Part shown: positions 12,065 through 52,571 of the stretch, piece by piece | Layout of the letters: each line of letters begins with the position of its first letter | How positions within the stretch are numbered: position 1 is the first letter of the stretch | Origin: an uncultured archaeon | Lineage (GTDB): Archaea > Aenigmatarchaeota > Aenigmatarchaeia > PWEA01 > JAGHBM01 | Reading direction: 5' to 3' | Assembly (NCBI GenBank): GCA_964584335.1 | Contig: CAZOZN010000002.1 | Location: 8,025 to 72,024, forward strand | DNA length: 64,000 bases | Translations under genes and position numbers: made by a program | Notes under the pieces: generated by a model | Seen by the model: the letters and a program-made list of their open reading frames with translations, nothing else | What the model was told of the DNA's origin: nothing | Databases searched by the model: none

Positions 12065-12194
12065 GCTGGGATGGCCGAGCGGACCAAGGCGCTAGCCTGG
12101 AAAGCTAGTATGCTTCGGCATGCGAGGGTTCGAAAGTGTATATTTTCTTTTATCAAAAGAGAAAATAATGCTGTAATTCCCTCTCCCAGCGCCA
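12065..12194 (+). tRNA. tRNA-Ser(GGA) with a ~43-nt intron in the T-loop region (about position 59/60); encoded CCA.
   Basis: Acceptor GCTGGGA/TCCCAGC, discriminator G, class-II D-arm GCC-GAGCGGACCAAG-GGC, anticodon stem CTAGC/GCTAG, loop CTGGAAA, variable hairpin ATGC-TTCG-GCAT, T-stem GAGGG. T-loop TTCGAA(A) is then interrupted by 12136-12178 before CCCTC. Confidence 0.75.
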
Positions 12195-43694: not shown

Positions 43695-43853
43695 GGGCCC
43701 ATAGCTCAGCCTGGTAGAGCACTCGGCTCTTAACCGAGTTGTCGAGGGTTCGAATGAGCCTTTCTTCAAAAGAAAGCCTCAAGGGAAAGAACTTGGAAAA
43801 CTCTCTGAGTTTTCCCATGCTTAAATCCTAAGAAAATCCCTCTGGGCCCGCCA
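43695..43853 (+). tRNA. tRNA-Lys(CTT) with an ~82-nt intron in the T-loop (about 59/60).
   Basis: Acceptor GGGCCCA/TGGGCCC, G, CCA; D-arm GCTC-AGCCTGGTA-GAGC; anticodon stem CTCGG, loop CTCTTAA, CCGAG; variable TTGTC; T-stem GAGGG; T-loop TTCGAA(T) interrupted by 43756-43837 before CCCTC. Confidence 0.75.
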
Positions 43854-50772: not shown

Positions 50773-50970
50773 CTAACCACGCGAAATTATTTCTATTACC
50801 TCAATATCATCTTTATCTCTTAATTTTTCTTCAACGGGAACAAACAATCCGTTTCTTTTTACTAAAACAGATTCTGTTATTATTCCCATCTCTTTAAGAA
50901 GTTCTTCTATAGTATCTTTCTCAGTCTTAAATTTTTTGGTTTTGTTTTTAATTTTAACTTTAATAATCAT
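50773..50970 (-). CDS. ThiS/MoaD-like beta-grasp small protein (sulfur-carrier-like) ending in -SRG rather than -GG.
   Basis: 65 aa; ...VLVKRNGLFVPVEEKLRDKDDIEVIEIISRG* follows the ThiS/MoaD pattern (vNG..vp...L.dGDeIeii..vsGG) except for the terminal dipeptide. Confidence 0.5.
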   Translation of the reverse strand: MIIKVKIKNKTKKFKTEKDTIEELLKEMGIITESVLVKRNGLFVPVEEKLRDKDDIEVIEIISRG

Positions 50971-51029
50971 ATTATTTATAGAAAGAGGAGACTTTTATGT
51001 ATTGCTCCAAAAAATACATTATATTAAAT

Positions 51030-51190
51030 GCTGAGGTGGGAGAGCGGTTTAATCCGGTTGGCTCGAGACCAACTGCATCTTTGATGCACGCAGGTTCAAA
51101 ACAGACCCTTTAGAAAAGTGTCTGTACTTCCAAAAATGTTTGGAAATCTACGATTTCCCAATTGGAACGAGAATCCTGCCCTCAGCGCCA
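51030..51190 (+). tRNA. tRNA-Ser(CGA) with a ~73-nt intron in the T-loop (about 59/60).
   Basis: Acceptor GCTGAGG/CCTCAGC, discriminator G, CCA; class-II D-arm GGA-GAGCGGTTTAA-TCC; anticodon stem GTTGG, loop CTCGAGA, CCAAC; variable hairpin TGCATC-TTTG-ATGCA; T-stem GCAGG; T-loop TTCAAA(A) interrupted by 51102-51174 before CCTGC. Confidence 0.7.
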
Positions 51191-51204
51191 AAAAAGGTTT
51201 TAAA

Positions 51205-51636
51205 ATGAGAAAAACTCCAAAAGTCACAGTAGACATAATTTTAGAGAAGGAAGACAAGATAATACTAGTAAAAAGAGGTATAGAGCCTTGGAAAGGTAAG
51301 CTTGCCTTGCCGGGTGGTCATGTAGAATACGAAGAAAACGTTGAAAATGCAGCAATAAGAGAAACAAAAGAAGAAACAAACCTTAATGTAGAAGTTAAAG
51401 ACATACTTGGAGTATACTCAGAATCAAAGAGGGACCCAAGATACCATGCAATATCAACAGTATTCATAGGTAAAATTATCAATGGTAATTTAGAAGCAGG
51501 TTCTGATGCGAATGATGCAAATTTTTACAATATAAAAAAAATTAAAAAAGAAGATATGTCATTTGACCATTGGAAAATAATAAAAGACTATTTAAAATGG
51601 AAAGAAAATAAAGGCACATATTGGTCTTCGAAATAA
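51205..51636 (+). CDS. NUDIX hydrolase. Start taken at ATG 51205; the ORF-track start 51118 lies inside the tRNA.
   Basis: NUDIX box GGHVEYEENVENAAIRETKEETNL (G-x5-E-x7-REUxEExGU). Confidence 0.75.
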   Translation: MRKTPKVTVDIILEKEDKIILVKRGIEPWKGKLALPGGHVEYEENVENAAIRETKEETNLNVEVKDILGVYSESKRDPRYHAISTVFIGKIINGNLEAGSDANDANFYNIKKIKKEDMSFDHWKIIKDYLKWKENKGTYWSSK

Positions 51637-51666: not shown

Positions 51667-51867
51667 ATGAAGTGTCCAAACAAAGAAATAAACCTTGAAG
51701 AATGTAACTGCAGTTACCCCGGTTGCAGCAGAAAGGGCATTTGCTGTGAGTGTATAAGATACCATAGAAAAATGAGAGAAATCCCAGCATGTTTGTTTCC
51801 AGACGATGTAGAAAAAACATTTGACAGGTCAATAGACAAATTTATTGAGACGCAAAAGCGATGGTAG
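51667..51867 (+). CDS. Small Cys-rich (putative metal-binding) protein; its 3' end overlaps the tRNA-Gly 5' end by 10 nt.
   Basis: 66 aa; [21 protein letters not shown] cluster of 7 Cys plus His. Confidence 0.3.
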
Positions 51868-51931
51868 TCTAATGGTAGGACACCACCCTGCCACGGTGGT
51901 AATCCGGGTTCAAATCCCGGCCTTCGCACCA
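51858..51931 (+). tRNA. tRNA-Gly(GCC), no intron.
   Basis: Acceptor GCGATGG/CCTTCGC (one T-T mismatch), A, CCA; D-arm GTCT-AATGGTA-GGAC; anticodon stem CCACC, loop CTGCCAC, GGTGG; T-arm CCGGG-TTCAAAT-CCCGG. Confidence 0.8.
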
Positions 51932-51947
51932 ATATAATATTCTGGTT

Positions 51948-52412
51948 TTGTTTATGTTCACTAAAAAAATTTATTCTGCTTGGGAAGAAAAACAGATTGA
52001 AAAATACAAAGAAATGAGAGATTTGATTCCCAAAGATTTTAATCTGGCATTGGACGTCGGTGTAGGTCCCGGTTGGTTTGAAGAATTCTTTGGTATGAAT
52101 ATCCTGGGAATTGACATTGACAAAAACTCTGCTGCTGATATAATAGCAAGCGGTGATTTTATTCCAATCAGGGAAAATTCCTTTGATTTTGTTATATGTT
52201 TGGATACTATTCATTTGGTTGGAGGAGAAGAAATTAAAAGAGTTCTTAAGCCCCGGGGTTACTTGTTATTATCACACTTCATAAACAAAGACAACGAAAA
52301 CGAGATAGAAAAAAAGCTTTTAAATATGTTCAAAGAATTTAAATTACTGAAAAGAAAAATAGTAGGTAACAAAGAAAAAGACCTTGCAATTTTGTTTGGG
52401 CCTGTGGTCTAG
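51948..52412 (+). CDS. Small class-I SAM-dependent methyltransferase; its last 15 nt overlap the downstream tRNA.
   Basis: Motif I ALDVGVGPGWF; acidic residue after beta2 (LGIDID); motif-IV-like FDFVICLD. Confidence 0.6.
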   Translation: MFMFTKKIYSAWEEKQIEKYKEMRDLIPKDFNLALDVGVGPGWFEEFFGMNILGIDIDKNSAADIIASGDFIPIRENSFDFVICLDTIHLVGGEEIKRVLKPRGYLLLSHFINKDNENEIEKKLLNMFKEFKLLKRKIVGNKEKDLAILFGPVV

Positions 52413-52571
52413 TGGCTATAGATTGACGTGCATTTTTGTGCGTTTCAGCCAGGACGCCACCTTGACGTAAGCTTTTGCAAAAAGCTTAAGCAAAATAAAA
52501 GCTTTCAAAATGGTGGATATCCCCGGTTCGAGAAAGACCCTTAAGGAAAGAGAATCCGGGCGGGCCCACCA
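52398..52571 (+). tRNA. Intron-rich tRNA (174 nt), apparently three introns: D-arm/anticodon junction, anticodon loop, T-loop. Candidate identity tRNA-Val(GAC).
   Basis: Acceptor GGGCCTG/CGGGCCC (one G-U), A, CCA; D-arm GTCT-AGTGGCTAT-AGAT; candidate anticodon stem CCACC (52449-52453)/GGTGG (52512-52516) with loop start TTGACG; duplicated TTGACGT at 52424-52430 and 52456-52462; T-stem CCCGG; T-loop TTCGA interrupted by ~22 nt before CCGGG. Confidence 0.5.

Follow-up and report, generated by a model that had tools for sequence, protein, structure and literature searches.

A tRNA-Ser(CGA) gene with a probable protein-spliced T-loop intron at position 59/60, upstream of a NUDIX gene in an Aenigmarchaeote-like archaeon

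An interrupted tRNA-Ser(CGA) gene

The 64-kb window, by which we mean the whole stretch of DNA that was analyzed (C2:8025-72024 of genome G000), contains a 161-nt pre-tRNA-Ser(CGA) gene at 51030-51190 of the + strand. It is followed on the same strand, after a spacer of 14 nt (51191..51204), by a NUDIX hydrolase coding sequence of 143 aa (51205..51636), whose ATG start at 51205 was assigned by comparison. The 5′ exon (51030..51100) supplies tRNA positions 1-59 and holds the acceptor 5′ strand, D arm, anticodon arm, variable arm, T-stem 5′ strand and T-loop nucleotides 54-59 (UUCAAA); a BLAST match to the ortholog in genome G002 stops exactly at its last base, 51100 (query base 71). Within this exon, the acceptor strand is followed by U8, a 3-bp D stem, an anticodon loop that reads CUCGAGA with the CGA anticodon at 51064-51066, a 16-nt variable arm, and the T-stem strand GCAGG. 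An AT-rich intron of 73 nt (51101..51173), a member of what we call family A, separates it from the 3′ exon (51174..51190), which contributes U60, the T-stem strand CCUGC, the acceptor 3′ strand, G73 and a CCA encoded at 51188-51190. Without 51101-51173, the sequence forms a class II cloverleaf of 88 nt that keeps G73 and the encoded CCA.

The source genome comprises 962 kb in five contigs, with a G+C content of 35% and an estimated completeness of 92%. The nearest named homologs of the NUDIX protein belong to Candidatus Aenigmatarchaeota, and the host looks like a DPANN archaeon that is Aenigmarchaeote-like. An encoded CCA is present in every tRNA gene examined.

Standard tRNA finders do not report the tRNA-Ser(CGA) gene. 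In the window, ARAGORN detects three tRNAs and Rfam five, with tRNA-Ser(CGA) absent from both sets; ARAGORN misses the gene in the unspliced window sequence, and Rfam returns no match overlapping 51030-51190 even at E <= 10. We scanned the genome for sequences with 7-bp acceptor pairs followed by N-CCA, which yielded 2595 candidates, and each of these was scored as the best cloverleaf obtainable after one deletion. The tRNA-Ser(CGA) locus scores 30.5, while the background peaks at 10-14 and only ~30 of the 2595 candidates score above 26. As this score cannot place anticodon-loop introns, the anticodon labels that it gives to other loci are unreliable, and it was used only for locating genes. 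A brute-force deletion scan with ARAGORN alone as the judge was discarded as too permissive, since nearly any deletion in a real tRNA gave a call. The tRNA-Ser(CGA) locus is real and lies far above chance, and it is the only gene with a CGA anticodon found in the genome. The initial annotation had described it as a tRNA-Ser(CGA) gene with a 73-nt T-loop intron, the third such gene in the window; the coordinates hold, tRNA prediction succeeds once the intron is removed (the 88-nt spliced form is called over its full length as tRNA-Ser(cga) by ARAGORN, which makes no call in the 161-nt precursor), and two T-loop-intron tRNAs do precede it, at 12065-12194 and 43695-43853, with a further one at 52398-52571.

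T-loop introns in the genome and in orthologs

The tRNA-Ser(CGA) gene is one of many with this arrangement. A census was made by searching for a T-stem followed by UUCRA and then by a matching 3′ T-stem strand, acceptor strand and CCA, with AT-rich false matches discarded. The T-loop was intact in ~21 of the genes it returned and interrupted by an insert in 20, or in 21 when tRNA-Thr(GGT) is counted, so that ~21 of the ~42 tRNA genes of this 0.96-Mb genome carry an insert at the same spot in the T-loop. Single-copy isoacceptors are among them.

All of the tRNA-Ser(CGA) orthologs found also carry a T-loop intron at this site, and the sequence of the intron varies by genome. Within the same genus, the gene in G004 resembles that of the window in having a family A intron, here of 128 nt, no other introns, and a NUDIX gene downstream. 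In G002 the T-loop intron is 45 nt long and unrelated to family A, other introns are again lacking, and the NUDIX gene is missing from between the tRNA-Ser(CGA) gene and the DUF6485 gene, which comes immediately after the tRNA (G002:C9:4713-7783, locus L004). The gene in G001 (locus L005, G001:C1:495473-498513), which has a NUDIX gene downstream, contains three introns: 12 nt at 37/38, ~37 nt in the loop of the variable arm, and 52 nt in the T-loop. The last of these belongs to a second family and is 96% identical to the T-loop intron of tRNA-Glu(TTC) in G000. Two genomes of a sister genus, G005 and G007, have related, longer T-loop introns together with a variable-arm intron, and a NUDIX gene was not seen in the sequence fetched from them. 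The exons are kept in orthologs from G001-G005 and G007, with compensatory changes at acceptor pair 3:70, at anticodon-stem pair 29:41, and in the variable arm. Intact exons with compensatory changes point to a working gene in which introns turn over at a fixed site. Such turnover could proceed by reverse splicing, or different tRNA genes could recombine through their similar T-arms.

The probable splice junction

[quoted passage not shown] For the tRNA-Ser(CGA) intron, only 51100/51174, corresponding to position 59/60, fits this rule. Helix h at this junction is the 5-bp T-stem GCAGG/CCUGC. The 3′ end of the intron consists of GAG (51169-51171), which pairs with U54-C56, and AA (51172-51173); in this GAG register the central helix is made up of U54.G, U55-A and C56-G plus an A57.C mismatch, or three of four pairs with one G.U. 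The 5′ bulge is AA^A, formed by A58, A59 and the first intron base, and the 3′ bulge is AA^U, formed by the two terminal intron adenines and U60. A strict hBHBh′ motif with an inter-strand h′ was sought for this intron and not found. The motif is instead a relaxed BHB, in which a local hairpin, P1 (51101-51125), replaces the inter-strand h′; this hairpin opens with the first intron base, at the very point from which h′, the outer helix, would extend in a canonical BHB.

The 59/60 register is also supported elsewhere in the genome. Across its 21 T-loop introns, all four central-helix pairs form in 10 and three of four form in 8, and the introns of tRNA-Thr(GGT) and tRNA-Asn(GTT) have textbook hBHBh′ motifs. 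The tRNA-Ser(CGA) intron fits a relaxed BHB intron at 59/60, and we infer its cleavage and exact junction from this geometry. A single splicing endonuclease would cut after A59 and before U60, and the ligase RtcB would then join the exons to give an 88-nt tRNA with the T-loop UUCAAAU.

It is unlikely that the cut is made elsewhere, although several observations leave room for this. Junctions at 57/58, 58/59 and 59/60 all yield an identical mature T-loop, UUCAAAU, so this run of A residues gives one product from three junctions that sequence alone cannot distinguish. Additionally, the minimum free energy (MFE) fold of 51090-51179 prefers a UUC/GAA pairing with a 1-nt bulge, which is not a cleavable geometry, and relaxed motifs with bulges of 1-4 nt are known (PMC3239211). 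With the UUC/GAA register, however, the 3′ cut would fall within the T-stem, and the enzyme must therefore use the GAG register. In family members where the candidate junctions do differ, for example tRNA-Thr(GGT) and the tRNA at C3:64988, it is 59/60 that gives a perfect 4-bp helix and two 3-nt bulges, with P1 serving as h′ in the latter. We retain 59/60 as the probable junction.

A self-splicing group I or group II intron, which would have a ribozyme core of hundreds of nt recognizable by the Rfam intron models, was rejected, as the intron is only 73 nt long and has no Rfam match at E <= 10. Inspection by eye revealed no C/D-box (RUGAUGA/CUGA) or H/ACA (ACA after a hairpin) motifs in it.

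The start of the NUDIX gene

The longest open reading frame for the NUDIX protein (172 aa) starts at a GTG at 51118, within the 3′ strand of the P1 hairpin, and the public record that represents the cluster (P0001, 166 aa) begins with the ATG at 51136; both positions lie inside the intron. The initial annotation had proposed that 51118 falls in the intron, that the gene starts instead at ATG 51205, 14 nt beyond the CCA end of the tRNA, and that T-loop introns mislead the calling of open reading frames, and all of these proposals are supported. The NUDIX domain (PF00293, E = 6e-20) spans residues 35-157 of the 172-aa frame and so begins 5 residues after the Met of 51205, wholly downstream of it, and the residues of the Nudix box REx2EE (R81, E82, E85 and E86) are invariant in the alignment of homologs. 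Most homologs are 141-150 aa long, and 16 of them start at, or within a few residues of, this Met. The ortholog in G001 has a stop 12 codons upstream of the aligned start and no alternative start, and the only upstream start in G004 is a GTG that lies after the CCA. An AGGT at 51195-51198 matches the anti-Shine-Dalgarno sequence of the genome's 16S 3′ end (GGAUCACCUCCU) and would act as the ribosome-binding site.

A true start upstream, at GTG 51118 or ATG 51136, would make the NUDIX gene overlap the tRNA gene. The frame is indeed open for 40 codons before 51205, and a few homologs (P0004, P0012 and P0024) are called in extended form, as is P0001. Such an extension would nevertheless translate the intron and the tRNA 3′ exon, its PALSAK stretch being the acceptor strand, and no Shine-Dalgarno-like sequence precedes 51118 or 51136. 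Together with the domain boundary, the homolog lengths and the frames in G001 and G004, this makes an upstream start very unlikely, and ATG 51205 is preferred. The consequences for annotation are practical: about half of this lineage's tRNA genes are invisible to standard finders, and the hidden genes cause false N-terminal extensions of their neighbors, of which the public 166-aa NUDIX record is an example.

A promoter would not fit into the 14 nt between the two genes, which makes co-transcription the likely arrangement, and the NUDIX gene is probably transcribed together with tRNA-Ser(CGA). A promoter could not be placed for either gene. A conserved CTTTTATGTATT motif is found upstream (50992-51003), but its distance to the tRNA varies among orthologs, and it may belong to a divergent ThiS-like gene. 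That gene is a ThiS/SAMP2-like open reading frame of 65 aa on the - strand (50773-50970), and its product ends in Arg-Gly instead of Gly-Gly. Downstream of the NUDIX gene, a DUF6485 open reading frame (51667-51867, + strand) has its TAG stop (51865-51867) inside the gene for tRNA-Gly(GCC) (51858-51931, + strand), an overlap of 10 nt.

The splicing enzymes and related systems

A predicted splicing endonuclease, EndA, is encoded at C2:104645-105187 (L001:1261-1803). This 181-aa protein carries the only match in the genome to the catalytic domain PF01974 (C2:104888-105166, E = 1e-26), and its best match in the PDB is the alpha4 enzyme of M. jannaschii (1a79). In its C-terminal domain, the stretch from the catalytic Tyr to the catalytic His is 6 residues longer than in M. 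jannaschii; this Lys-rich insert, in KLKRGPKSAKEH, aligns without gaps to the one in the N. equitans alpha subunit. No second EndA-like (beta) gene was found when all open reading frames of at least 50 aa in the 92% complete genome were searched with Pfam, phmmer and jackhmmer. The presence of a single gene suggests that EndA is alpha4-like, an oligomeric state that is to be read against this level of completeness. The ligase RtcB (PF01139, E = 9e-172) is encoded at C4:74404-75711. The sole EndA gene lies ~500 nt downstream of two T-loop-intron tRNA genes, that of tRNA-Asn(GTT) at C2:103843-103949 and another at C2:103985-104111, all within locus L001 (C2:103388-106666).

Kaneta et al. described alpha4 EndAs with a C-terminal L3 loop in several DPANN lineages and linked them to large numbers of disrupted tRNA genes (PMC5829648). 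The EndA of G000 shares its Lys-rich insert, placed between the two catalytic residues, with these enzymes and with the N. equitans alpha subunit (3iey). It differs from the N. equitans enzyme in that no beta subunit gene was found. A relaxed intron of the hBH type at 59/60 was shown by Fujishima et al. to be cleaved in vitro by the endonuclease of ARMAN-2 (Candidatus Micrarchaeum acidiphilum), which has 59/60 introns in pre-tRNA-Cys(GCA), where the 13-nt hBH intron is the one cleaved in vitro, and in pre-tRNA-Pro(GGG) (PMC3239211). The two systems share the 59/60 site, which is the probable one here, a relaxed BHB with the T-stem as helix h, a DPANN host, and many disrupted tRNA genes. In contrast to ARMAN-2, the intron described here is 73 nt long and folds as a junction of three helices in which a local hairpin substitutes for h′, the candidate enzyme is a single alpha4-like protein rather than a three-unit epsilon2 enzyme, and about half of the tRNA genes have an insert at this site. 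The insertion site, the class of motif and the class of enzyme are thus already in print (PMC5829648, PMC3239211); the tRNA-Ser(CGA) intron belongs to a known kind of feature. In this lineage, one alpha4-like endonuclease bearing an L3 insert apparently deals with large numbers of relaxed motifs at a non-canonical site, in agreement with the published view that the range of substrates depends on loop inserts and not on subunit type.

A structured intron family

The MFE structure of 51090-51179 contains the T-stem, its extension through 54-56, and the P1, P2 and P3 helices, arranged as a three-way junction (z = -4.2). P2 is formed by the pairing of 51128-51133 with 51162-51167 and P3 is a hairpin at 51142-51158. 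We define family A by a P1 hairpin that starts at intron base 1-2, an AC-UUCC(C)AAAA linker, P3, and a 3′ end of GAR-AA before N60. The first 37 nt of the tRNA-Ser(CGA) intron are 92% identical by BLAST to the T-loop intron of tRNA-Cys(GCA) in the same genome, and further matches were obtained to T-loop introns of other tRNAs in G001, G002, G004, G005, G007 and G013. A covariance model, R1, was built from P1 and the linker, and its best score in G000 is that of the tRNA-Ser(CGA) intron (55.6 bits). R1 finds 8 copies in this genome, 3-13 per genome in six of seven relatives from the same family, and 1-2 per genome in three of nine genomes from a second family of the order.

Among 29 copies that were fetched, 26 are located at 59/60, one in a tRNA-Trp 37/38 intron, one directly after a CCA, and one elsewhere; G000 holds one further copy in a Trp intron and two further copies after CCA ends. 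In the tRNA-Trp(CCA) gene, the P1 module opens a canonical 37/38 intron of 130 nt, right after position 37 (C1:219753-219794 in G000; also at L046 in G006). The modules that follow an encoded CCA directly (C1:98464-98505, - strand, and C3:52141-52180, + strand, in G000; L042, G004:C121:4063-4104, - strand) consist of P1, the linker and P3, without the P2 3′ strand and the GAR-AA end, and two of the three lie in tRNA-tRNA spacers.

Across 18 copies, P1 is 98.9% paired and five of its ten pairs are changed on both sides; the copies are interrelated, and these counts overstate their independence. The observed covariation score was reached by 0 of 500 shuffles, and pairing drops to 44-67% when the P1 partners are slid by 1-3 columns. 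The P3 hairpin is kept in 17 of 18 copies with differing stem sequences. The comparison clearly points to a family A structure that is conserved while its sequence changes.

That the tRNA-Ser(CGA) gene is dead because a small repeat was inserted into it, with TCG codons read by tRNA-Ser(UGA), might be argued from the eight copies of the inserted element in the genome, from copies that lie outside introns directly after CCA ends, and from the failure of standard finders to see the gene, but is scarcely credible given that no other CGA-anticodon gene was found, that the exons are intact with compensatory stem changes in orthologs, that the intron is at the same site in every ortholog examined, that about half of all tRNA genes, single-copy isoacceptors included, carry such an intron, and that a matching endonuclease and ligase are encoded. 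We consider it highly probable that 51030-51190 is the only tRNA-Ser(CGA) gene found, that its intron at 59/60 is protein-spliced and belongs to a structured family, and that the NUDIX gene starts from ATG 51205.

A lineage-wide, structured and spreading family of 59/60 introns is the more interesting part of this system, and we found no paper that describes such a T-loop intron pattern for Aenigmarchaeota. The family is similar to the introns of Thermoproteales, in which, according to a summary in PMC4090602 of Fujishima et al. (2010), related introns are common to different tRNA genes. As there, near-identical introns are found in tRNAs of different identity, namely tRNA-Ser(CGA) and tRNA-Cys(GCA) (92% over 37 nt) and tRNA-Ser(CGA) of G001 and tRNA-Glu(TTC) of G000 (96%). 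Relative to the Thermoproteales introns as they are summarized, those described here occur in another phylum with another type of endonuclease, are nearly confined to 59/60 (26 of 29 copies examined), and have helices with compensatory changes.

It is possible, if doubtful, that the intron is more than filler and represents a structured RNA element (P1, linker and P2/P3) that spreads through the tRNA genes of this Aenigmarchaeote-like family, its 5′ end always placed at an RNA processing site. If so, the sites used would be the T-loop 59/60 position, the anticodon-loop 37/38 position of tRNA-Trp, and the position directly after an encoded CCA. P1 might then serve as a movable outer helix through which the one alpha4 endonuclease, with its L3 insert, can cut at these places, or the element, once released, might have its own role as a small RNA carried by tRNA transcripts. 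As a structured and spreading intron family, it offers a usable system for studying how archaeal tRNA introns move.

A shorter variant is present within the window, in the multi-intron tRNA gene at 52398-52571 (C2:60422-60595). Its T-loop intron is only 22 nt long and resembles a family A intron with the middle deleted, in which the start of P1 is joined to the AAGGAAAGAGAA end.
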